A stretch of DNA of 64,000 nucleotides from Patescibacteria group bacterium (lineage in GTDB: Bacteria; Patescibacteriota; Patescibacteriia; Buchananbacterales; UBA6539): positions 344 through 64,343 of the forward strand of contig JBAZMQ010000008.1 of NCBI GenBank assembly GCA_041649675.1, written 5' to 3'. The notes beneath the pieces were generated by a model. It had not been told where the DNA came from and did not search any database. It saw only the letters and a list, made by a program, of their open reading frames with translations. Made by a program: the position numbers and the translations under genes. Shown piece by piece: positions 3,518-61,325 of the stretch (within the stretch, counting starts at the first letter, position 1; each line of letters starts with the position of its first letter).

Positions 3518-4261
3518 ATGAAAAAATTTTTATTAATTTTATTTAGCGTCGTGGTGGTTGTGATTGTTGCCGCAGTTAGCTTGCAAATTTTTATCAGCAA
3601 TCAACGTAATCAACAGGCTTTAGTAATTGATAAAAACATTGCCAGTTTTGTCGATTGTGCCAAAGCCGGCTATCCGATTATGGAAACTTATCCCGAGCAA
3701 TGTAGAACCAAGGACGGTAGAACTTTTGTAAAACCAATTCCTAATCCGGAAATTATTGCCGGCGTTGAATCGCTCCAATATAGTGATTCTGAGTTTGGTT
3801 TTTCTTTTTGGTATCCAGCTGGCGCTGAAGTCAGAAAGGAAAATTTGGAAGGCTATTTAAGTTTAGCCAAAGCTGGTTTAGCGGGAATATTTTTACCCCA
3901 GGAATTATTTGTTGGTACGAACTTGGGAGAAGCGGCGGTAATTGTTGGAATTAGTACCAGTCCGGATGCAGTCAGTAAATGTGAACAAATTAACACCACC
4001 AATGATGAAAAAGATTTGGGTCCAGCCATGATTGGGTTTGCCTCCGGTCATAAATTTTCTGCCGTCGGTGTCGGGGCAGGTAATATTTATGAATCAACAA
4101 TTTATCGTTTGGTAAAAAATCAAAATTGTTACGAGATTGTTGAATTATTGCATTCGGGCAATATTTATAATTACGATCCGGGTACGGTTGAAGAATTTGA
4201 TAAAAATAAATTTTTAGGAATTTTGGAAAAAATGGTGCAAAGTTTTGTCTTTAGTAACTAA
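3518..4261 (+). CDS. Hypothetical secreted or membrane-anchored protein
   Basis: N-terminal hydrophobic signal anchor MKKFLLILFSVVVVVIVAAVSL. No catalytic motif recognised. Confidence 0.45.
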   Translation: MKKFLLILFSVVVVVIVAAVSLQIFISNQRNQQALVIDKNIASFVDCAKAGYPIMETYPEQCRTKDGRTFVKPIPNPEIIAGVESLQYSDSEFGFSFWYPAGAEVRKENLEGYLSLAKAGLAGIFLPQELFVGTNLGEAAVIVGISTSPDAVSKCEQINTTNDEKDLGPAMIGFASGHKFSAVGVGAGNIYESTIYRLVKNQNCYEIVELLHSGNIYNYDPGTVEEFDKNKFLGILEKMVQSFVFSN

Positions 4262-4270
4262 AGCTGATAT

Positions 4271-4687
4271 ATGGATTATCGCAAGTATTATAAAAAAAGA
4301 TTTTGGGGACATTTATTTTCTATGCCGTTTATTTGGTTGCCCTTGCCGTTTATTATTTTGCTAGATTTGGTCGTTGAGCTATACCAGCAAGTTTGTTTTG
4401 GCCTTTATGGTTTGCCAAAAGTAAAACGCAAAGAATATATTCTAATTATGGACCGAAATAAATTACAGTATTTATATCCTTTGGAAAAATTAGGCTGTAT
4501 GTATTGCGGCTATGCCAATGGCGTTTTTGCTTATTTTAAAGAAATTGCCAACCGAACGGAAAAATATTGGTGCGGGGTAATGCATGTCAACAAGCCAGGA
4601 TTCAAAGTCCAAGAGCACCAAGGAGTACAAAATTTTTCTCAATTTGGTGATGAACAGGAATTTAAGGCAAAATACCCTGATATTTAA
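4271..4687 (+). CDS. Hypothetical small membrane protein with a conserved Cys cluster (CMYCGYANG...YWCG)
   Basis: One N-terminal TM helix and four spaced Cys residues. Family not recognised. Confidence 0.4.
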   Translation: MDYRKYYKKRFWGHLFSMPFIWLPLPFIILLDLVVELYQQVCFGLYGLPKVKRKEYILIMDRNKLQYLYPLEKLGCMYCGYANGVFAYFKEIANRTEKYWCGVMHVNKPGFKVQEHQGVQNFSQFGDEQEFKAKYPDI

Positions 4688-9426: not shown

Positions 9427-9454
9427 ATAAGAAATTAATTTTTTAATTTCTTAT
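9427..9454. terminator. Bidirectional intrinsic terminator between rbr (+) and metallopeptidase-1 (-)
   Basis: Perfect palindrome ATAAGAAATTAA-TTTT-TTAATTTCTTAT flanked by A- and T-runs. Confidence 0.6.
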
Positions 9455-11637
9455 TTTTTTATCTCAAAGACAATCGGATGAGGCAAATCACGGTAGCCGC
9501 CGGAGTTATACAAGATAAAATCAGGCAGGCTGATTTTGCAGCCATCGGCTGTCATTTCCGAAATCACACCTTTCTTTGGCACATTCCAAGAGGTGTTATT
9601 TTGTGGGACAGTGGCGCTTTCACCGGAAATTTCATTATGAATCGTGAAGCCCGGGGTTTCAAATTTGCCCTCTTTAGTCACAGCTTCAAACGTGCCGTCT
9701 TTCAGGACTGATTCCGCACTTAAATCAAATTCTAAATAATGATCATAAGCAAAATTCATGGCGCTTGAAGTGATAAACAAAGCCGTCTGGCTGGGCCAAT
9801 CTTCCCGATAAGTGACTTTAACTCTCCATTTACCCAAGTAAGCATATTTGGCCTTGGCCGGGACCGAATCTTTAACTAATTCACCTTCAGCCTGATATCT
9901 GACAATACCAGTATAGTTTGGGCTAACAGCAAAGATGGGTTTAGAAACCATAGTCTCCCCTTGATTAATTTCATAGCACGACTCTTGAGTCTTAACTTTA
10001 ATGTCGCTTACGTCTATTTTATTTTTCATTTCGGCATTGCTGAAAATCAAAATAATTCTGTCAAAATCTTCATCCGCCTTGTCAAAGCAAAAACTGCGGC
10101 TTTCTTTGTCGGTCCAATCTTCGGTGTAGGGTTGGCCATTATTTTTTGGATAGATTATGGCCTTGATTGCCGCGTTGCCACTTTTGCCGGTAAAATTTTT
10201 CAGATCTTTAAAGACTGCTTTACGTACACCTTGCGCGTCGCTAAAGAAAGTTTCAATCACCTGGGCCGTCAGCGGTTTTAATTCTTTGGTGGGAATACTA
10301 GTTTCGCCGGGTGCCAAGAAAATCATATCGTTATTGTCTTTTTGATTGGTATCACCGGTGAACTTTTTACTCTGGTCGGCTTTTTTATAATTTTCGATTG
10401 GGTTTTGATTAAAATTCCACAAGGTAAATTCTTTCCAGTTTTTCTTAAAGCCGCCGTTAATGGTTTTTTCGGCACTGGCCAGCGGAGTAGAACCGCCGGT
10501 ACAACCTTCAAAAATTTTAGTGACAATCATCCGATCATAAGTATTGGATAGATAAAAAGGAAAAACATAAGCGCCATATTCAAAATTTTTGCCATTTTCA
10601 AACAAGCTCGTGGCCGGTCTTGGAATAAAACTTTCAACATATCCTTGTTCAGTATTATCTTTGGGGTAGATCATATCTTCCGACCAGGTAGCTGTGCCTT
10701 CAATCCACCACCAGTTGGCGACGTAAAGCCGGCATTCAAAAGCCCGTTGAAAGGCGTGGAATAATTCATGAACGGTTGTAGTCTTTAAATATCTGTCATT
10801 TAAATTTTCTCGAAGGATGATATAACTGCTTTTGCCATTGCCGTTATCCGGCACGTTAACGCCCTGGGAAGGTGAACCACCTTTCGAATCAGCTAAATGA
10901 ACATGGGCACCAGTTGCTATAAAAATATCGGTTTTATTATCGCCACCCAAAGTTCCGTCCGAAGGGGGAGTTTTCCCAAGTAAGCCGACAAACTGGGCAT
11001 AGGCGCCGTCGGCATTTAAGTTTGCCACAATTTTTTGGGCGACATTATAATAGAGCTTAGTGACTTTTTCCTCGCTGTTAACCATTTCCTTTTTTTCCAG
11101 ATACCAGACTTTAATTTTGCCATCGGCAGTTATTAAAGTGTCATCGGATTTGTAAGACAGGGGACGATCAAAAGCTTTGGCTTGATCAATTAGTTGAAGC
11201 CAGCTGGTTTGTGGCGCTTGGATTTCACCATTCATAATTTTACTCATCGCGCTTTCCGGATTATCCGGCCGCAAAAAATACGGCGCCAAAGTCTTTTTAG
11301 TTTCAGCTGTTAGTTTGCTCCAGTTTTCGGCAATTTCGCCAAAAGTGCCGCCATCTTCAAACGGCCCATTGGCGCTGGCATATTCTTTTGGCAAAGTTGG
11401 GTCATTGAATAAAAATTTAACCTTATTGATCAAAGCCGTGTCTAAATTAATTTTGCCTTCAGCTAAGTCTTTTTGGATTGAATCAAGGCCGGTTGGCTCG
11501 TTACTGTAGCGCGGGTCAGTAAATTTGTCAGCTTCGGCCACTTTGGCTTTCTCGCCTTTGGGTAAGAAAAAATAAAGACCGACTCCAGCGGCAAGAATGA
11601 TGGTCGCTGCAATGATTAAAATTAGTTTCTTTTTCAT
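9451..11637 (-). CDS. Secreted gluzincin-type metallopeptidase (HExxH...E; peptidase-MA-like), paralog 1
   Basis: Signal peptide MKKKLILIIAATIILAAGVGLYFF. Zinc motif TVHELFHAFQ with a downstream WWWIEGTATWSED glutamate. Shares NxxWxxFSxxTKxxLxPFLL and EATATW motifs with the 13290-15512 gene. Confidence 0.65.
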   Translation of the reverse strand: MKKKLILIIAATIILAAGVGLYFFLPKGEKAKVAEADKFTDPRYSNEPTGLDSIQKDLAEGKINLDTALINKVKFLFNDPTLPKEYASANGPFEDGGTFGEIAENWSKLTAETKKTLAPYFLRPDNPESAMSKIMNGEIQAPQTSWLQLIDQAKAFDRPLSYKSDDTLITADGKIKVWYLEKKEMVNSEEKVTKLYYNVAQKIVANLNADGAYAQFVGLLGKTPPSDGTLGGDNKTDIFIATGAHVHLADSKGGSPSQGVNVPDNGNGKSSYIILRENLNDRYLKTTTVHELFHAFQRAFECRLYVANWWWIEGTATWSEDMIYPKDNTEQGYVESFIPRPATSLFENGKNFEYGAYVFPFYLSNTYDRMIVTKIFEGCTGGSTPLASAEKTINGGFKKNWKEFTLWNFNQNPIENYKKADQSKKFTGDTNQKDNNDMIFLAPGETSIPTKELKPLTAQVIETFFSDAQGVRKAVFKDLKNFTGKSGNAAIKAIIYPKNNGQPYTEDWTDKESRSFCFDKADEDFDRIILIFSNAEMKNKIDVSDIKVKTQESCYEINQGETMVSKPIFAVSPNYTGIVRYQAEGELVKDSVPAKAKYAYLGKWRVKVTYREDWPSQTALFITSSAMNFAYDHYLEFDLSAESVLKDGTFEAVTKEGKFETPGFTIHNEISGESATVPQNNTSWNVPKKGVISEMTADGCKISLPDFILYNSGGYRDLPHPIVFEIKK

Positions 11638-11647
11638 AAAATTTTTT

Positions 11648-11722
11648 TGTCATGCCGGCCTTGAGCCGGCATCCAGGGTTAATATCGTGCGACTCTGGAT
11701 TCCCGCGTTCGCGGGAATGACA
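11648..11722. repeat. TGTCAT...ATGACA palindromic element (copy 1), in the 5' leader of metallopeptidase-1
   Basis: Terminal inverted repeats TTGTCATGCCGG / CGGGAATGACAA with internal hairpins GCCGGCCTTGAGCCGGC and TCCCGCGTTCGCGGGAA. Homologous to 15526-15601. Confidence 0.6.
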
Positions 11723-11900
11723 ATAAAGAGTTAAGGTTTAATGACGGCTTTATTATAGCAAAAAACCGCCTTCTCGTCCCGTCCTTATGAAAGGCGGGGG
11801 TAGGCGATTATTATCTCAACTTAATAAATTTAGTTTAGTATGTTATAATGTAGTTAAGGTTGGGCCCGGGTAGAATTTCTACCCGGGCCTTGTCTAATTG

Positions 11901-12251
11901 TTAATTGTAACAATTAGATACCGGACAGCTCCAGTCTGTATCATCGGGATGATCAGGATGGATAGCATTATCCAACTGCTGACTACCCCCGAACATGTGG
12001 TAGATCTCACATTCCTTGTTGTAAGCAACTTCCGCTGATGGGAAGTATGATGCTTTGAACATAGGGTAAGATTCTACCCAATCATGAAGTCTGTCATTTA
12101 AATCCGTATCAGACCTACCAACATACTCGACAATGAATGTGCGGTTAGTATTTAACCTGCCAAGAACATAAGTGCCTGGACGGGTCAGTTTAACAGCAAA
12201 ATCAATTGACTCATGTGATAGCGTGAACGGACCTTCAAGTCCGGTATTCAT
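11901..12251 (-). CDS. Small GIY-YIG nuclease-domain protein (YhbQ/UPF0213-like)
   Basis: PGTYVLGRLNTNRTFIVEYVGRSDTDLNDRLHDW matches GIY-x10-YIG-x3-L-x2-RL-x2-H. Confidence 0.6.
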   Translation of the reverse strand: MNTGLEGPFTLSHESIDFAVKLTRPGTYVLGRLNTNRTFIVEYVGRSDTDLNDRLHDWVESYPMFKASYFPSAEVAYNKECEIYHMFGGSQQLDNAIHPDHPDDTDWSCPVSNCYN

Positions 12252-12364
12252 AATCGTGATAGAAACCTTTCGGTTTTTTTAATTATTAAACCAATTTTAG
12301 GTAAAACCGACTTTATTTACCATTATTGGTAGGGTATAATAGTACCTTTCCCTTTTGATTATTT

Positions 12365-12886
12365 TTAACTTATCAGCCTATCAAGAATAGATTTAATCTT
12401 TTCAATCTCGTCTTTAGAGGTATCCTCTGGAATATCTATAGTAAACCGTATTCCGGGTCTTAAGTTTAAATCAATTCTATGTCGGTTCGTTAAAACTTCT
12501 GTTTCAGTTACTTGATTATCTTTGTTGTTTTTTAGCTGTGGTTTAAGGGTTTGATTTTGAGATCTAATGCGACGGGAAGGATTCCAATTAGCCATTTTTG
12601 CAGGATCTTGCCCGTATTCTTCAAAGTCATCAATAACTTTCATAACCCGACCTTTGTAGGTAGCCAGTGAGGCAGCACTCAGTTTACTGCTGTTTTTTGA
12701 AAAGACATTATGATATATCTGCTCAAGATTATTTTTAAATTTTTCTACCGATTCACGTTCATCATCATTTATTTCAGCCTCGAATAACTTTAAAGCTGCC
12801 TTTAACCCACTCGCTGTGTTTTCGGCATATTTCCGACTTTTTGTCGCGCTCTCTATAAATTTGTACAGACTTTCAAATTTTTCCAT
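12365..12886 (-). CDS. Hypothetical protein (173 aa), co-oriented upstream partner of the GIY-YIG gene
   Basis: Intact ORF with good local codon usage. No recognisable motif. Confidence 0.4.
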   Translation of the reverse strand: MEKFESLYKFIESATKSRKYAENTASGLKAALKLFEAEINDDERESVEKFKNNLEQIYHNVFSKNSSKLSAASLATYKGRVMKVIDDFEEYGQDPAKMANWNPSRRIRSQNQTLKPQLKNNKDNQVTETEVLTNRHRIDLNLRPGIRFTIDIPEDTSKDEIEKIKSILDRLIS

Positions 12887-13149
12887 TTTTTTATAGTTAA
12901 TTGTTAGGTATTCTCATCTTAGCGCATCTGATTTTAATTGTCAAATGCAAATGACCAGTAAAGTGTATGTTATATGATATTTTTTGCTAAAGATAGCAAA
13001 TATATATATATTTAATGATATTTTCTAGTCATCAATCTCCACTAAATATATAAGTTAGATTGTAAATTGAATATTAAAGGCTTAAGATAGCTCTTTTCTA
13101 TTGTTATTTATTTCATCTTAATTGTCATTAACGAGAATTGAATTTTGCT

Positions 13150-13205
13150 TGTATTTTTTGAAAAACCGAAGGTTCGATTCGTCGGTTAGACGGTCAAATC
13201 TTACC
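13150..13205 (-). terminator. Intrinsic terminator of metallopeptidase-2 (minus strand)
   Basis: On the minus strand a GCCGAAGGT...ACCTTCGGT hairpin is followed by TTTTTC. Confidence 0.5.
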
Positions 13206-13289
13206 TTCGGCAAGGGCTGGCTCGGCGAGGACGCCTCACCCCTATTATATTTATTTTCTTAATTTTTTAATTTCTTATTTTCTTAAACT

Positions 13290-15512
13290 CTAATCCATCT
13301 TCCTATATTCCCAATCAATCGTGCCTTTGATATTATCTCCCGGCTGGTAGGTGGTATGGCCTTTAATCACTTTGTCATTGGGCTTGATGGTAATTTCAAT
13401 TGGGTTGGGGGCATAAGAGTAGCTGGCGGAATACTCGGTATTACTGCTTTCCTGATAACCGCCCCAGGCGTTTTGTAATGGCAGAATGAAGGAACAGTTT
13501 TTTTCCAAATACTGCCAGTAGCTGGTGGTTTTGAATTGTCTTTGAGCCGTGGCTGAATCGGGATCAGGCTTGATGTCAAAACCGATTTCATAAGGGCCGC
13601 CGATTTTGCCGGTTAAATCTTCGGCGTGAGTGGTGCCGTAGATTCGGCTGTGTTGTTGCTCTTCATTTTTGAGATCATAGATATAATTACCATTGCCGCT
13701 GGTGGTACTGCGTGAATTGTCAAAAATTACACCGCAGCCGCCCCGGCCACCCTGATAGGTTTTGTTATATTTTTCATTGAAGGTAAAATTATGTTTTTTT
13801 ACTAACAACTCATCATTTTCCGGATCATATTCGAGTTCTTCATGAATCGAATAAGAACCGCCAGTTTTCACATTGCCGCTGGCTTTGCCATAATCCATAT
13901 ATGCTCCCTGCCAACTGACGCGAACCGTGCCAATCCAGCCTGGGCCGCATTTTTTTTCCGCTTTGGTTTTTAAGTTGCCATTGGCGAGATTAATGATATC
14001 TGAATTGGTGGTAATCAAAACGGCAGCGGTGATGTTTTCCTCGTCCAAATTGCGACAGAAAGTCCGTTCCGGCAAATTTGACCAGTCTTCGTAATACCAA
14101 TTGTCACCAATCTTAATTAGGGCTTGCAAACCCTTGGGTCCATTTTCGTTGGGCTCAAATGCCTTAACGTCAAAAGTCAGTTTTTTAATATTATCATTGG
14201 TCAGATAGTAGAAATAATATTTCGCCCCACCTCTTTCTAAACTGACGGCTTCGGTTTTTTCACCAAATGAATGCAGCGGAATCATTTTCATTGAAGCGCC
14301 TCCGGGAGTAATGGCGGGAAATTGGGGCGTATCGTTGTGGTAAATAAATGGTATTTGATTCCAGTTCCAGAAAGAAAATTCTTTGAATTCATCATTAAAG
14401 TCCGGCCGGGATTTCAAAGCTTGGCGGGCGGCATTGGTTTGTTTGGCTCTAGCCAAGGCTAAAGCGATGTCTTGGCCACCGCCACCGGCTTTTTCGGTCA
14501 AATAATAAAACCAAAGATAAGAAGCATATTCGTGGCTGGCTTTAGTGCTTAATAAATCCCAGTTAGTGTAGTTAAAAAAATCAGAATCATATTCGTGTTC
14601 AGTGTTATAGTTATGATAAACAAAATCTTCAGCCCAAGTGGCGGTGGCTTCCATCAGCCATTTCATATCCAATTCATATTTGAAACCATAAAAATATTGG
14701 TAGCAATGAAAAACTTCATGAGCCGTGGTGGCCTGAGTTATTTTTTGATCCAAACCAGTTTTGATTCTAACCACGCAGATTTTATTGGAGACCGGATTTA
14801 AAGAAGCTTGGCCGTAGCCGGAAAGACCGCGGCTGTTTAAATAAATATTGATTTTTTTGTCAGTCAAATCAATGCCAAGTAAGTCAGAAAATTTTGGCAC
14901 CGAATCAACCGCGGCAGTTTGAGCCCAAACATTATTTTGATAATCCTGTTGTTCGCGCGATTTATCATAGTAAACGCTGACTTGGGGCAAAGGTTTTGAT
15001 TCAACCCAGACTGTCGCTGGCGCCGCCCCGGCCGGCTTGATTAAAAGTAGCTTATCCCAAAGATTTTTTTCCTCATCAGCGGTCAAAGCCGGACTGTAAT
15101 AACTTTTGGGATCATCCGGCGGCAGTAAAAAGGGGAGTAAAGCATCTTTTGTCTGTTGAGAAAAAGAATTCCACTTTTCATTAATTAAGCCGAAAAGATA
15201 GGCGTCATCAGTGGAAACTGGCGCGCCTTGGAATTCTGCCGGTAATTTAGTCTGGTCAGCCAAGCCAATCACTTGATAAACTATACTTTGTTCCTCGGTG
15301 ATTTTGTCCGCCGTTTGCGCGGCTTGAATTTTATCCGCACTAGTTTCTTGATAAGGAACTTCTGGCCTGTATGATTCAACGATTTTTTTTACTTGGGGAT
15401 CAGTAATTTTTGAAGGGTCAATTGTTTCTTGAGCCGTCTGATTGTTTTTATTAAAACAGCCGGTGGTAAATAGGGTCAGGAGGATTAGTAGTAAAAATAG
15501 AGGTTTTTTCAT
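13290..15512 (-). CDS. Secreted gluzincin-type metallopeptidase lipoprotein (HExxH...E), paralog 2
   Basis: Lipobox LFTTGC. TTAHEVFHCYQ with downstream MEATATWAED. Paralogous to 9451-11637. Confidence 0.65.
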   Translation of the reverse strand: MKKPLFLLLILLTLFTTGCFNKNNQTAQETIDPSKITDPQVKKIVESYRPEVPYQETSADKIQAAQTADKITEEQSIVYQVIGLADQTKLPAEFQGAPVSTDDAYLFGLINEKWNSFSQQTKDALLPFLLPPDDPKSYYSPALTADEEKNLWDKLLLIKPAGAAPATVWVESKPLPQVSVYYDKSREQQDYQNNVWAQTAAVDSVPKFSDLLGIDLTDKKINIYLNSRGLSGYGQASLNPVSNKICVVRIKTGLDQKITQATTAHEVFHCYQYFYGFKYELDMKWLMEATATWAEDFVYHNYNTEHEYDSDFFNYTNWDLLSTKASHEYASYLWFYYLTEKAGGGGQDIALALARAKQTNAARQALKSRPDFNDEFKEFSFWNWNQIPFIYHNDTPQFPAITPGGASMKMIPLHSFGEKTEAVSLERGGAKYYFYYLTNDNIKKLTFDVKAFEPNENGPKGLQALIKIGDNWYYEDWSNLPERTFCRNLDEENITAAVLITTNSDIINLANGNLKTKAEKKCGPGWIGTVRVSWQGAYMDYGKASGNVKTGGSYSIHEELEYDPENDELLVKKHNFTFNEKYNKTYQGGRGGCGVIFDNSRSTTSGNGNYIYDLKNEEQQHSRIYGTTHAEDLTGKIGGPYEIGFDIKPDPDSATAQRQFKTTSYWQYLEKNCSFILPLQNAWGGYQESSNTEYSASYSYAPNPIEITIKPNDKVIKGHTTYQPGDNIKGTIDWEYRKMD

Positions 15513-15525
15513 AAAGTTTTTATTT

Positions 15526-15601
15526 TGTCATGTCGGATTCAATCCGGCATCCAGAGTTAATTTGTATTACTTCTTGATCCCGCATCAAGTGCGGGATGAC
15601 A
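15526..15601. repeat. TGTCAT...ATGACA palindromic element (copy 2), in the 5' leader of metallopeptidase-2
   Basis: TTGTCATGTCGGATTCAATCCGGCA...GATCCCGCATCAAGTGCGGGATGACAA, followed by AGGTTTAATGACGGGTTTATTATAGCAAAA, which is also conserved at 11727-11762. Confidence 0.6.
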
Positions 15602-15652
15602 AGAAAAGGTAAGGTTTAATGACGGGTTTATTATAGCAAAACCTATTACCAA

Positions 15653-15742
15653 TGTCATTGCGAGCGACCAGGGGAAGCGAAACAATCCACTAGGACCTTA
15701 GAGATTGCTTCATCCCGATAATAAGTCGGGACTCGCAATGAT
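15653..15742. repeat. TGTCATTGCGAG...CTCGCAATGAT palindromic element (copy 3)
   Basis: About 90 bp, bounded by 11/12-matching terminal inverted repeats. Confidence 0.55.
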
Positions 15743-15801
15743 ATAAACAAATAAAAAACACCCTGCAACTTTGGTGTAAGTGCAGGGATGAAGTGCAAAG
15801 A

Positions 15802-16749
15802 TCAGACTACGTGGGAAATTTCTCCGGGTTGGGGTGCCTGGTGGGCTGAGACAGGAACAGCCTCTGGAGAAACTGCTGGGCAGCCATCAAGGGTGGTAAC
15901 GTCGTCGGTCGGGTTAGGCGTGATGTCAAGTGCTATCTTGCCGCCAGCGTTGCAAATGCCGCAGGCCAAAAATCCGCCGTCAATGTTGATACAGGTACCA
16001 TTAATAAAGGATGCGCCCGGGGAGCAAAGAAATGCCACTACGCTGGCGATTTCTTCGGGTAGCCCATAGCGACCCATTGGTGTATTTGACTTGATGCGCA
16101 AACCGCGGTCGCCTAAGGCCAAAATTTCGCGGTTTTGTTCGCCTGGGAAAAAACCCGGTTCCACGGCATTGGTTCGGATGTCACCTTCAATTAACTGTGG
16201 GTCAACTGCCATTTGCCGGGTTAGGGCCAGCAAGCCGGATTTGGCACAGGCATAAGGGGTTACACCGCTTAAGGCAACCTGACTGGCAACCGAGCAGATG
16301 TTTACGATGACGCCGCCAGTGCCTTGCTTGAGCATTTGGCCCGCGACGGCTTGCGACATCCGGATCGCACCGTAAAGGTTAAGATCCATCAAGGTTTGGA
16401 AATCTTCCATGGTCGTTTCAAGAAACGACTTTTTTCCTCGGTTGCCGCCAGCGCAGTTGATCAGACCATCTACCTGGCCAAATTCCCCGATGGCAGTTCG
16501 GATTGCATACTCCACGTCAACGTTTTCACAGACATCAACTTTAATGACGATAGATTGGTTTTTGTCATAAGTTTGATCAAGCTCTTCGGCTTTGGCTATA
16601 GCCTTGTCAGTGCTGGCTGAACAGCAGACTACTTTGGCACCCAAATCCAAAAGTGTTTTGGTAATTGCCATTCCGATGACTCCGGTTCCGCCGGTGATGA
16701 TTATCACTTTTCCGGACAAATCAAATTTGTTCATGTACAAAACTCCCAT
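15802..16749 (-). CDS. SDR-family NAD(P)-dependent oxidoreductase with a ~60-aa C-terminal extension
   Basis: Rossmann TGGTGVIGMAI (TGxxxGxG), NCAG, catalytic YACAKSGLLALTR (YxxxK). Locally elevated GC. Confidence 0.75.
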   Translation of the reverse strand: MGVLYMNKFDLSGKVIIITGGTGVIGMAITKTLLDLGAKVVCCSASTDKAIAKAEELDQTYDKNQSIVIKVDVCENVDVEYAIRTAIGEFGQVDGLINCAGGNRGKKSFLETTMEDFQTLMDLNLYGAIRMSQAVAGQMLKQGTGGVIVNICSVASQVALSGVTPYACAKSGLLALTRQMAVDPQLIEGDIRTNAVEPGFFPGEQNREILALGDRGLRIKSNTPMGRYGLPEEIASVVAFLCSPGASFINGTCINIDGGFLACGICNAGGKIALDITPNPTDDVTTLDGCPAVSPEAVPVSAHQAPQPGEISHVV

Positions 16750-19633: not shown

Positions 19634-20185
19634 ATGGCTAAAGTAAAAATTTTAATTGAGGGTTTTACCAGCGGTGATAATGGCGACGGGGAAACTTGTT
19701 CAACAATTTCTTTAGTGGTTGATAAAGATATTATTATGGTAGTTGACCCCGGGGTTTTAGAAAGTCAACAACTTTTGGTTGAGGCTTTGGCTAAAGAAGG
19801 ATTAAAAATCAGTGATGTCAATTATGTTTTTATTACCCATTCGCATTTGGATCATTACCGCAATATTGGGCTGTTTGCCGAAGCTAAAACTGTTGAATAT
19901 TTCGGTGTTTGGCAAGGTGGAAAATGTGATGACTTACCCAAACAATTAAGTGATGATATTGAAATAATCAGCACGCCGGGTCATAACTATGACGGTTTAA
20001 GCTTGCTGGTAAAAACTGACTTAGGCATAATTGCGATTGTCGGCGATGTTTTTTGGCAAAAGAATTCTCCTGAAGTTGATCCTTATGCCAGTGATCAAAA
20101 TAAGTTGGCTGAGAGCCGAAAAAAAGTTTTAGCTTTAGCTGATTATATTATTCCCGGCCATGGGCCGATGTATAAAACAAAATAA
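19634..20185 (+). CDS. MBL-fold metallo-hydrolase
   Basis: ITHSHLDHYRN (HxHxDH) and a downstream PGHN His ligand. Confidence 0.7.
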   Translation: MAKVKILIEGFTSGDNGDGETCSTISLVVDKDIIMVVDPGVLESQQLLVEALAKEGLKISDVNYVFITHSHLDHYRNIGLFAEAKTVEYFGVWQGGKCDDLPKQLSDDIEIISTPGHNYDGLSLLVKTDLGIIAIVGDVFWQKNSPEVDPYASDQNKLAESRKKVLALADYIIPGHGPMYKTK

Positions 20186-20291
20186 AGAATTATTAATTAT
20201 TTTGTCATTCAATTACTAATAATTCAAAGTATGATGAGATTTTTTTCGCTTAGCTAACCTTTGAGGTCAAAATGACTATTAAAAAATAGAA

Positions 20292-24218: not shown

Positions 24219-24578
24219 ATGAGAAAAATTGCAATTTTAACTACTCTAGTGGCAATTTTTGCTATCAGCGTTTTACCGGCGCTAGCTTTAGACGTCGGTT
24301 TGAACTATGGTACTTACACTGGTTTAGGGACTAAAGATATCCGTGAAGGAATCATGGCCGTAATTAGAATATTGCTAGGCTTTTTAGGCATTATCGCCAT
24401 CGTGATTATGCTTTACGGCGGTTTTGTTTGGTTAATTTCTGCTGGTAACGAAGAAAAAGTTGGTCAGGCCAAAAAAATTATTACCGCTGGGGTGATTGGT
24501 TTGGTTATCATCTTTGTCTCTTACGCTTTGGCCACCTTCGTCGTTAGCCAACTTATGACAGCCACTGGGGCTATTTAG
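24219..24578 (+). CDS. Small secreted 2-TM protein, VirB2/TrbC-pilin-like (tandem paralog 1)
   Basis: Sec signal (…LPALA|LD), then two hydrophobic helices separated by SAGNEEKVGQAKK, 119 aa. RBS GAAAGGGGGTGAAACAATG. Confidence 0.4.
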   Translation: MRKIAILTTLVAIFAISVLPALALDVGLNYGTYTGLGTKDIREGIMAVIRILLGFLGIIAIVIMLYGGFVWLISAGNEEKVGQAKKIITAGVIGLVIIFVSYALATFVVSQLMTATGAI

Positions 24579-24663
24579 TTATAATTTAATAAGTTTAGAC
24601 TTGAATTGATTTTTGGTAAGATATCTAAGCCTTTACTTATATTATTTGAAAGGGGGTGAAACA

Positions 24664-25023
24664 ATGAAAAAATTTATTGTTTTAACAGCGTTAGTTTCAG
24701 TTTTCCTTTTTTCCGCTATGCCAGTTTTGGCCTTAGAAACCGGTTTGAACTATGGTACTTACACTGGTTTAGGGACTAAAGATATCCGTGAAGGAATCAT
24801 GGCCGTAATTAGCGTATTACTAGGCTTTTTAGGCATTATCGCCATCGTGATTATGCTTTACGGCGGTTTTGTTTGGTTAACTTCTGCTGGTAATGAAGAA
24901 AAAGTTGGTCAGGCCAAAAAAATTATTACCGCTGGGGTGATTGGTTTGGTTATCATCTTTGTCGCTTACGCTTTGGCCACCTTCGTCATTAGCCAACTTA
25001 TGACAGCCACTGGAGCTGTTTAA
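24664..25023 (+). CDS. Small secreted 2-TM protein, VirB2/TrbC-pilin-like (tandem paralog 2)
   Basis: Near-identical mature region to 24219-24578 (about 90% nt identity from LNYGTYTGLGTKD onward), with an identical RBS and a different signal peptide. The start is taken at the internal MKKF rather than the ORF-track 24613. Confidence 0.4.
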   Translation: MKKFIVLTALVSVFLFSAMPVLALETGLNYGTYTGLGTKDIREGIMAVISVLLGFLGIIAIVIMLYGGFVWLTSAGNEEKVGQAKKIITAGVIGLVIIFVAYALATFVISQLMTATGAV

Positions 25024-49594: not shown

Positions 49595-49695
49595 TGTCAT
49601 TTCGAGGTCTTAGTTGAAGTCGAGAGGCCGAGAATTTCATACTATAATGAGATTTCTCCCTTGACCATCCTAAATGTGACTCGGTCGAAATGACA
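49595..49695. repeat. TGTCATTTCGAG...TCGAAATGACA palindromic element (copy 4)
   Basis: About 100 bp, bounded by terminal inverted repeats of the same family as 15653-15742 and 55169-55273. Confidence 0.55.
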
Positions 49696-49699
49696 ATAA

Positions 49700-49738
49700 A
49701 AAAAGAGCCGCGCCTGTATTACCAGGTGCGGCTTTTGA
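49700..49738. terminator. Bidirectional intrinsic terminator between guaA (+) and the LTD-protein gene (-)
   Basis: AAAAAAA-GAGCCGCGCCTG-TATTA-CCAGGTGCGGCT-TTTGA. Confidence 0.55.
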
Positions 49739-49754
49739 TAGTGGCTTTTTTAGA

Positions 49755-51725: not shown

Positions 51726-52088
51726 TTATTTTTTTAGAGATTTTTCTAAATCGGAGATTTCTGTCCATAACATTGCACCGATTTCTTCGGCCAGTTTTAT
51801 TCCGATTGAATGGTCATTTTCAGTAATAAAATTTTGTTGTTGGGAAAAATGTAATAGGTATTTTGATTCTTTTAAGGAGCCGTAGGAAATTTCCAAAAAA
51901 TTTAATTGAACTAAAGGTTTTTTTCGAGCATAACCTTCAAGATAGTTCAAAATTATTGAAAGGGTTGATCGTCTCCATTGGGAAACGCTGCCATATAATT
52001 CTCCTTTAGGAAATTTTTTTGTCACCCGATAGACAAATTTGACGTATTCATCAGCTTTCATTTTTAATTTATTTTGGAATTTGCTCAT
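51726..52088 (-). CDS. Four-helix-bundle protein of the '23S rRNA intervening-sequence protein' family
   Basis: YRVTKKFPKGELYGSVSQWRRSTLSIILNYLEGYARK...EISYGSLKESKYLL closely follows the family consensus (…[30 protein letters not shown]…A.GSL.EL.T.L). 120 aa. Confidence 0.75.
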   Translation of the reverse strand: MSKFQNKLKMKADEYVKFVYRVTKKFPKGELYGSVSQWRRSTLSIILNYLEGYARKKPLVQLNFLEISYGSLKESKYLLHFSQQQNFITENDHSIGIKLAEEIGAMLWTEISDLEKSLKK

Positions 52089-55168: not shown

Positions 55169-55273
55169 TGTCATTCTGACCCCGCTGCATAAAATAAATA
55201 GGGGCGGGGGAAGAATCTCAGAGATTCTTCGTCGTCCCATGAACAAGGGTTGGCAGGACTCCTCAGAATGACA
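55169..55273. repeat. TGTCATTCTGAC...TCAGAATGACAG palindromic element (copy 5), in the CapA leader
   Basis: About 105 bp with terminal inverted repeats and an internal CCCCGC...GCGGGG hairpin. Confidence 0.55.

Positions 55274-57731: not shown

Positions 57732-61037
<3,306 letters not shown>

Positions 61038-61216: not shown

Positions 61217-61325
<109 letters not shown>

Follow-up and report, generated by a model that had tools for sequence, protein, structure and literature searches.

A 64,000-nt stretch of DNA from a Patescibacteria group bacterium (assembly GCA_041649675.1, contig JBAZMQ010000008.1, positions 344 to 64,343 of the forward strand; hereafter the window) contains five short palindromic elements bounded by TGTCAT and ATGACA or a close variant. 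Each element is a head-to-head (HH) dimer of two inverted hairpin units with their tags on the outside, and the apparent terminal inverted repeat (TIR) is a by-product of this inverted arrangement. We consider it probable that the elements are HH dimers of CGTC/TGTC-tagged repetitive extragenic palindromes (REPs), likely gene-less derivatives of Ssn cassettes that act as single-stranded DNA sites. The first-pass annotation of the window had called them REP-like or similar to MITEs (miniature transposable elements with inverted repeats). The REP part of this label stands, as the elements fall within the CGTC/TGTC-tagged REP superfamily. The MITE part is not supported, because no target-site duplication was found, the stems covary independently, and the gene associated with relatives of the elements encodes a GIY-YIG protein and not a DDE transposase. 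A vague label is thereby replaced by a specific, testable identity.

Anatomy of the elements

All five elements were found between open reading frames (ORFs) at the coordinates of the first-pass annotation, except that the third ends with ATGATA at position 15743, not at 15742 (Table 1). Pairs of TGTCAT and ATGACA at a spacing of 55–115 nt occurred four times in the window, compared to 0.05 + 0.09 expected from dinucleotide-preserving shuffles. The units share one plan, in which an unpaired 5′ tag (T/C)GTC is followed by a stem starting with the pairs A-T and T-A, a loop, the return stem, a C, and a short tail. Among the 10 units of the five reported dimers, nine carry the tag TGTC and one TATC; GTC precedes the hairpin in 9/10 and C follows the stem in 9/10.

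Two classes of unit were distinguished. Class I units (copies 1 and 2) consist of TGTC, an 8–9 bp stem beginning with AT, a loop of 3–5 nt, and then CCAG or CAAG; the stems of the four units are 8, 8, 9, and 8 bp long and the loops 5, 4, 3, and 5 nt. The left unit of dimer 1 (plus strand) reads TGTC-ATGCCGGC-CTTGA-GCCGGCAT-CCAG and its right unit (minus strand) TGTC-ATTCCCGC-GAAC-GCGGGAAT-CCAG. The hairpins of dimer 1 persist in dimer 2, maintained by a paired deletion and the gain of an A-T pair. Class II units (copies 3–5, a decayed sixth copy, and a seventh copy beyond the window) follow the formula TGTC-ATTNN-GA-(variable, often hairpin-forming insert)-GA-NNAAT-C(T/C)C, with an outer stem of only 5 bp, a variable inner hairpin, and a length of 23–61 nt. 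This is seen in both units of dimer 5 (TGTC-ATTCT-GA(inner hairpin)GA-AGAAT-CTC), in the right unit of dimer 4 (TGTC-ATTTC-GA...GA-GAAAT-CTC), and in the right unit of the sixth copy (AGTC-ATTTT-GA...GA-AAAAT-CTC), the left half of which is eroded (TGTCATTCA...). The tail begins with CCA in three class I units and CAA in the fourth, and with CTC, CCA, or TTC in class II, the profile of the whole family being C, Y, C. Intermediate forms exist and link the two classes.

The extended terminus TGTCAT(T)NCGAG that had been proposed for all copies was present in copies 3 and 4 only. The corresponding sequence in copy 5 is TGTCATTCTGA, and all that copies 1 and 2 share is TGTCAT/ATGACA. Beyond their termini (~11 terminal bases), copies 3, 4, and 5 share almost no primary sequence.

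When the class I units were folded as single-stranded DNA, they adopted the expected structure, leaving both the tag and the tail free of pairing (z -3.3 to -5.0); both units of dimer 1 formed 8-bp hairpins (z -4.7 and -3.9). Three or four of the class II units folded as expected, and some others are visibly eroded. The left unit of dimer 5 reached z -3.8, and the right unit of dimer 3 paired ATTGC with GCAAT around an inner hairpin (z -3.4), while the left unit of dimer 3 no longer folds alone. As RNA (plus strand), the five elements folded below shuffled controls (z -3.5 to -6.1). The one long imperfect stem-loop suggested earlier was not obtained; instead, a closing stem around two or three hairpins was predicted.

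The sixth and seventh copies were not in the first-pass list. A 28-position covariance model of the unit regained 9/10 units of the five dimers and the decayed unit at 20236–20275, all of them at E values of 0.24–9 and thus among noise; the model is too short to be useful, and its search gave no convincing new copies. Where other assemblies of this organism (L001 and L122–L125) overlap with the window, they match it at 99.95% identity or more (blastn), and no presence/absence difference at the elements was found there.

Table 1. Positions of the dimers and of a promoter-like site. Coordinates refer to the window unless another assembly is named.
Feature	Coordinates	Class and length	Units or strand	Remarks
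Dimer 1	11648–11722	class I, 75 nt	left 11648–11676 (+), right 11695–11722 (-)	
Dimer 2	15526–15601	class I, 76 nt	15526–15554 (+), 15573–15601 (-)	
Dimer 3	15653–15743	class II, 91 nt	15653–15690 (+), 15700–15743 (-)	partly decayed; right tag TATC
Sixth dimer	20204–20277	74 nt	right 20238–20277 (-) recognisable	decayed; found by structural scan
Dimer 4	49595–49695	class II, 101 nt	49595–49639 (+, imperfect), 49648–49695 (-)	
Dimer 5	55169–55273	class II, 105 nt	55169–55220 (+), 55220–55273 (-)	
Seventh dimer	L122 10817–10912			canonical; same metagenomic contig, 4.5 kb past the window's right end; both tags TGTC
Promoter-like site	15630–15658		minus	-35 box ATGACA is the outer terminus of dimer 3; 17-nt spacer; TG-extended TATAAT

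Relationship to published repeats

The Neisseria Transformation Sequence (NTS) is a 28-nt motif with the consensus CGTCATTCCCGCGMAVGCGGGAATCYRG (Chenal et al. 2025, PMC11893778). The right unit of dimer 1, read on the minus strand as TGTCATTCCCGCGAACGCGGGAATCCAG, is identical to this consensus at 27 of 28 positions and differs only in the first base. From 29 genomes the same authors derived the search pattern HGTCWYN(0-2)YYVSBRHN(0-5)WNVSBRGN(0-2)RNCYNB for Ssn-related motifs (SRMs) (PMC11893778). This pattern matched the window once, at this very unit, compared to 0.03 matches expected by chance. In 251 kb of DNA flanking nuclease genes (described below), it found seven sites and is too narrow for class II units.

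The class I units also follow the plan of the CGTC-tagged REPs in full (Di Nocera et al. 2013, PMC3733652). Their tag is often TGTC, with CCTC as another variant; their stems of 8–9 bp almost always start with AT, their loops are 4–5 nt long, a CCA tail follows, and HH dimers with the tags outside predominate (PMC3733652). They are extragenic and located near the 3′ ends of genes, with occasional intragenic copies, and were sorted into families CGTC-1 to CGTC-4, in which the Neisseria dRS3 element is CGTC-1 and the Rickettsia elements RPE-4 and RPE-6 are members (PMC3733652). No dedicated transposase or other enzyme was found for them (PMC3733652). The "orphan" CGTC-tagged REPs of 2013 and the Ssn-related motifs of 2025 are the same thing, a conclusion that goes slightly beyond both source papers.

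Features conserved in the wider family

A search of viral contigs with TGTCATTNNGA-N(55-85)-TCNNAATGACA returned at least 120 matches, and 108 distinct dimers (216 units) among the matches listed served as the sample for covariation counts. The unit architecture was present in 95/108 of these dimers. A complementary NNAAT(C/T) was found downstream of the unit's own ATTNN in 169/216 units. In dimers with differing ends, pairing was with the unit's own partner in 55 units, and with that of the opposite end in only four. The base after the stem was C in 164/166 units, although the search also allowed T. A 28-nt unit alignment, ascertained only on GTCAT, GA, and ATC, was then evaluated for seven proposed pairs. 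Of its cells, 91.9% were paired, compared to at most 53% in slid controls; 32 cells were doubly changed, compared to 8.0 ± 2.2 in shuffles (0/500 reached 32), and the covariation score was 0.352 compared to 0.136. The stems of the units thus covary independently, and selection acts on the hairpin of each unit together with its tag and the following C. The conservation of this C parallels the mutagenesis of SsnA sites, where it was the base most critical for binding.

The family is large, with thousands of relatives elsewhere. According to the first-pass annotation, the idea of a family would fall if a genome-wide search gave no more copies and the five were only paralogous leader duplications. 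Copies 1 and 2 do belong to one duplicated leader, but many further copies exist and the family is real.

A relative also occurs inside a gene. In a Candidatus Komeilibacteria metagenome-assembled genome (MAG; MHKO01000037.1, locus L129), a 136-nt class II dimer at 4164–4299 lies within the guaA coding region and is read in frame (LC/HCERSEASQKL...STLSRND/IF, slashes marking its ends), its first TGT providing a conserved Cys codon. The conserved blocks GPGLxIRxLC and LPxKSVGVQGD are joined by a variable linker, which the dimer occupies, and in this it resembles the Rickettsia palindromic elements.

Association with GIY-YIG nuclease genes

In two viral loci (L116, and L094, which is the same as L126), a small GIY-YIG ORF is bracketed by dimers; the L094 protein is 100% identical to a protein of Flavobacterium beibuense. 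Searching the viral contigs with the GIY-YIG protein, as a single sequence or as an alignment, returned only the already known locus. Metagenomic contigs scanned with an alignment of the GIY-YIG family yielded 80 loci. A GTCAT-tagged unit was located within 300 bp of the GIY-YIG gene on its upstream side in 50/76 evaluable cases, on its downstream side in 57/77, and on both in 41/73. Unit density was 4.17/kb near the gene and 0.30/kb further out, a 14-fold difference. The commonest layout (20/41) was a plus unit, ~20 nt, the gene, 10–40 nt, and a minus unit, so that the gene lies in the spacer of one HH dimer; the remaining loci are flanked by whole dimers. Since the nuclease gene is often found inside a single HH dimer, the dispersed dimers look like gene-less derivatives of such a cassette.

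Canonical NTS-type units flank some of the homologues (L216, L185, L222, and L215), in L216 with CGTCATTCCCGCGCAGGCGGGAATCCGC on both sides, and one protein family therefore pairs with both classes of unit. The NTS-ssnA-NTS arrangement of Chenal et al. is thus reproduced and extended to class II units. Two points go a little beyond the source papers. The common GA...GA variant with a variable inner hairpin, which the published pattern misses, also brackets Ssn-like genes, and the nuclease gene often sits within a single HH dimer.

The units also leave traces in protein databases. Gene prediction routinely starts GIY-YIG ORFs too far upstream, within the flanking unit. In 14 of 14 GIY-YIG homologues with an over-called N-terminus, the first residues are unit-encoded peptides, among them GHCEARSNL, VVIARYEAI, VIARRYDEAI, LRGTKQSN, SLLAMT, and CHCE.. 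(P0007–P0105). Unit-encoded sequence is probably also behind many short "hypothetical proteins". For annotators, this means that short ORFs and N-terminal extensions arising from these repeats are artefacts.

Recognition as single-stranded DNA and possible mobility

SsnA of Neisseria acts on single-stranded DNA alone, which it binds and cuts on only one of the strands, a few nucleotides 5′ of its motif; it does not bind RNA (PMC11893778). Binding depends critically on the C that follows the palindrome, and cutting on the three bases that precede it (PMC11893778). By homology, a unit of the window that becomes single-stranded during uptake, replication, or conjugation would fold, and a small single-domain Ssn-family GIY-YIG nuclease would bind it through the stem and the following C and cut a few nucleotides away, on the 5′ side of the tag. 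With its two units inverted, a dimer has one site in the right orientation on either strand, and the two cuts would be placed immediately outside it. This geometry would suit a restriction of incoming single strands that works on both strands alike, or else the excision of the cassette. The dimers would then derive from a cassette of the form "unit - ssn gene - inverted unit" but lack its gene, and they would spread or persist as selfish or domesticated DNA; any effects on neighbouring transcripts, through leader structure or a borrowed -35 box, would be secondary.

A more far-reaching proposal is that the dimers are non-autonomous elements that owe their mobility to a GIY-YIG single-strand nuclease of the Ssn type acting in trans. 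They would be the miniature form of a hitherto unrecognised "unit - ssn - unit" transposon, active in or inherited by candidate phyla radiation (CPR) bacteria and capable of in-frame insertion into essential genes, guaA among them. This agrees with the geometry, as each strand has one cleavable unit with predicted cuts just outside the element. We regard this proposal as possible but doubtful. It is the more interesting outcome: if true, Ssn cassettes and their dimers would together form a mobile system based on GIY-YIG, a counterpart of the REP-associated tyrosine transposases (RAYTs) and their REP doublets (REPINs).

Several observations weigh against the identification of the elements as Ssn-related single-stranded DNA sites. 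Only 1/10 units of the five reported dimers fits the SRM pattern, and about half of the class II units fold no better than shuffles as isolated single-stranded DNA. The tag is lost in one unit (TATC), and in one the stem is no longer followed by C; several of the copies may be relics. No GIY-YIG ORF was found in the 84 kb made up of the window and the adjoining 10 kb at each end, as judged from Pfam scans of 39 window ORFs and of the called genes of L001, L122, and L124. A tblastn search of the window for GIY-YIG was also negative, although with approximate query sequences it is a weak negative alone. The GIY-YIG proteins associated with relatives of the elements were assigned by Pfam PF01541 alone and not by CDD cd10448, and NCBIfam and PDB sequence searches did not place them. 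Finally, the conservation of the leader that contains copies 1 and 2, upstream of genes for divergent proteins, could reflect a selected RNA or regulatory role.

Patescibacteria are thought to depend on DNA uptake. A system for restriction or mobility of single-stranded DNA could therefore be biologically relevant in this group.

Gene context and a possible role as RNA

The first-pass annotation had placed three copies in the leaders of two metallopeptidase paralogs and of CapA, and the others downstream of genes including guaA, and these positions were correct. Since copies 1 and 2 lie in one duplicated leader, they count as one event; five of the six independent copies are located 2–60 nt past a stop codon. 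Copy 3 is found just beyond the terminator-like hairpin of a short-chain dehydrogenase gene. Copy 4 begins 7 nt after the guaA stop, ahead of another terminator-like hairpin. Copy 5 begins 8 nt after the stop of a DUF3160 gene (55160) and ends ~33 nt before the ATG of the PGA_cap gene. The decayed sixth copy is intergenic, 18 nt past the stop of a Lactamase_B gene (19634–20185), and the seventh lies between two genes, 2 nt after the stop of one and 12 nt before the ATG of the next.

Copies 1 and 2 lie 10 nt upstream of the ATG of a gene for an HELFH protein (9451–11637, minus strand) and 13 nt upstream of the ATG of its HEVFH paralog (13290–15512, minus strand), respectively. Both are inside a 154-bp stretch, 77% identical between the two loci, upstream of these minus-strand HExxH protein genes (11630–11800 and 15505–15680). 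On the minus strand, a promoter-like TGcTATAAT box is followed in this module by ~37 nt and then by the REP dimer and start-codon region. The paralogs themselves are only 25% identical as proteins, which suggests leader-specific conservation or recent conversion. The promoter-like site in Table 1 faces the HEVFH paralog and was the best of the region (11/12 positions plus TG, as a consensus match only). Judging by this match, the terminus of dimer 3 may supply a -35 box to this downstream gene.

The first-pass annotation also suggested that the elements could be modules for RNA stability or termination. On this view they would act mainly as RNA, in the leaders of the HExxH and PGA_cap mRNAs, whose translation or stability they would control, and as terminators or 3′ stabilisers behind guaA and further genes. 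We consider this unlikely. The strong RNA folds described above would fit such a role, as would the distance of 10–13 nt between copies 1 and 2 and a start codon, downstream of the TGcTATAAT box, and the conservation of the leader between paralogs that are divergent as proteins, an odd fact that an RNA-level role would explain best. Copy 4, between the guaA stop and a terminator-like hairpin, is probably transcribed, and many REPs are argued to act as RNA elements (Di Nocera et al., PMC3733652). However, Rfam gave no match on the elements, either at gathering thresholds over the whole window or at E values up to 10 over 11500–15900 (copies 1–3). A T-tract follows none of the elements, the bases after ATGACA being A-rich or mixed, and a terminator scan listed none of them; instead, copies 3 and 4 each have a separate terminator-like hairpin with a T-run as a neighbour (15762–15800 and 49697–49740). 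The conserved features, an unpaired tag and one base after the stem, are typical of recognition by a protein, and SsnA does not bind RNA (PMC11893778). Moreover, the same family flanks nuclease genes and sits in frame within the guaA gene of L129. The orientation of the elements relative to transcription is uninformative because the dimer is palindromic.

Other mobile-element explanations

REPINs, in the work of Bertels and Rainey of 2011 and of Nunvar et al. of 2010, are reportedly REP doublets that form hairpins and go together with a Y1 transposase that has been domesticated. Mobility is established for REPINs, whereas that of CGTC/SRM dimers is a proposal. Classical REPINs moved by a RAYT (Y1, IS200/IS605-like) would have the same design as the elements of the window, with two inverted hairpin units, a short 5′ tag, no target duplication, and a mostly extragenic location, and Chenal et al. 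draw this comparison (PMC11893778). Nevertheless, we find it very hard to reconcile the elements with such an origin. The tag is TGTC/CGTC and not GTAG, Di Nocera et al. found no RAYT/IS200 gene flanked by CGTC units (PMC3733652), and the flanked gene that was found encodes a GIY-YIG protein. No transposase or Y1 domain was detected in the scanned window ORFs or in 10 kb on either side.

Even less credible is an origin as classical MITEs, i.e., deletion derivatives of an insertion sequence (IS) whose DDE transposase would recognise TGTCAT...ATGACA. The size of 75–105 bp, the inverted termini, the intergenic scatter, and the many copies elsewhere agree with it. Yet direct repeats (k = 1–8) flanking 95 dimers were at the level of permutation controls, and none were found at the window copies. 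The two ends vary independently, each pairing with its internal partner (55 compared to 4), the window contains no transposase, and the gene bracketed elsewhere is GIY-YIG. The Coxiella elements QMITE1/2 were also considered and rejected by their description (150–400 bp, target duplications, and a GTAG REP; PMC5896051).

That there is no real family, only chance palindromes and one duplicated leader, is practically negligible as an explanation: copies 1 and 2 do represent one duplication and copies 3–5 are similar only at ~11 terminal bases, but four pairs were observed where 0.14 are expected, all copies are intergenic, the unit grammar is that of hundreds of external copies, and one unit matches a published 28-mer at 27/28 positions.

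The organism and other features of the window

Among species-representative genomes, no match to the guaA product exceeds 54% identity, the best matches being Patescibacteria, Kerfeldbacteria, Komeilibacteria, and Moraniibacteria MAGs. The distribution of the repeats within this group is patchy, because among related loci only L129 and L132 carry members. Arrays of type IV secretion system (T4SS) pilin genes and a long 23S rRNA fit a CPR bacterium. Two T4SS-pilin/TrbC-like paralogs are located at 24219–25023, and about ten more are arranged in tandem just upstream of the window (L124 1237–5900). The 23S rRNA (57732–61034) is 3303 nt long, compared to 2925 nt in the model, with ~380 nt inserted; a 5S rRNA follows at 61217–61324, and no 16S rRNA is present in the window. 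A free-standing gene for a "23S rRNA intervening sequence protein", a bAvd-like four-helix protein (PF05635, E 1e-23), lies outside the rRNA at 51726–52088 (minus strand).

The region 630–1290 contains tRNA-like repeats. Its sole intact copy is tRNA-Ser(cga) at 1103–1189. Three segments resemble a tRNA 5′ half (647–682, 926–961, and 1091–1126) and two a 3′ half (1162–1214 and 1230–1282), and a 139-nt repeat (630–768 and 909–1047) is 81% identical between its copies.

Comparison with known systems

MITEs such as the Neisseria Correia elements and Coxiella QMITE1/2 resemble the dimers in being small, palindromic, intergenic, and foldable, and in that their ends can bear promoter elements. They differ in having IS-related TIRs and target-site duplications, neither of which was found here. 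The likeness to the REPIN/RAYT system is closer and comprises inverted tagged doublets, no target duplication, a bracketed enzyme gene, and dispersed gene-less doublets; there, however, the tag is GTAG and the enzyme is HUH/Y1, whereas here the enzyme is GIY-YIG.

With the NTS/SRM and SsnA system, the elements share a unit identical at 27/28 positions, GTC before the hairpin and C after it, and relatives that flank single-domain GIY-YIG genes. In contrast to that system, 9/10 units are off the published pattern, no ssn gene is present in the 84 kb, and the repeats are few and partly decayed, whereas those of Neisseria occur in large clusters.

Compared to the CGTC-tagged REPs, class II units fall outside the published definition of an 8–9 bp stem and a 4–5 nt loop, owing to their 5-bp stem, GA...GA, and long insert, and the host belongs to the Patescibacteria (CPR), a phylum outside the five listed in 2013. 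In all other respects compared, the elements are alike: the tag, the AT at the start of the stem, the stem and loop sizes of class I, the CCA-type tail, the HH dimers, the mostly extragenic location near gene 3′ ends, and an in-frame intragenic copy (L129). The repeats are of an already described and widespread kind, now seen in a CPR bacterium; the finding is largely ordinary and leaves the current understanding in place.

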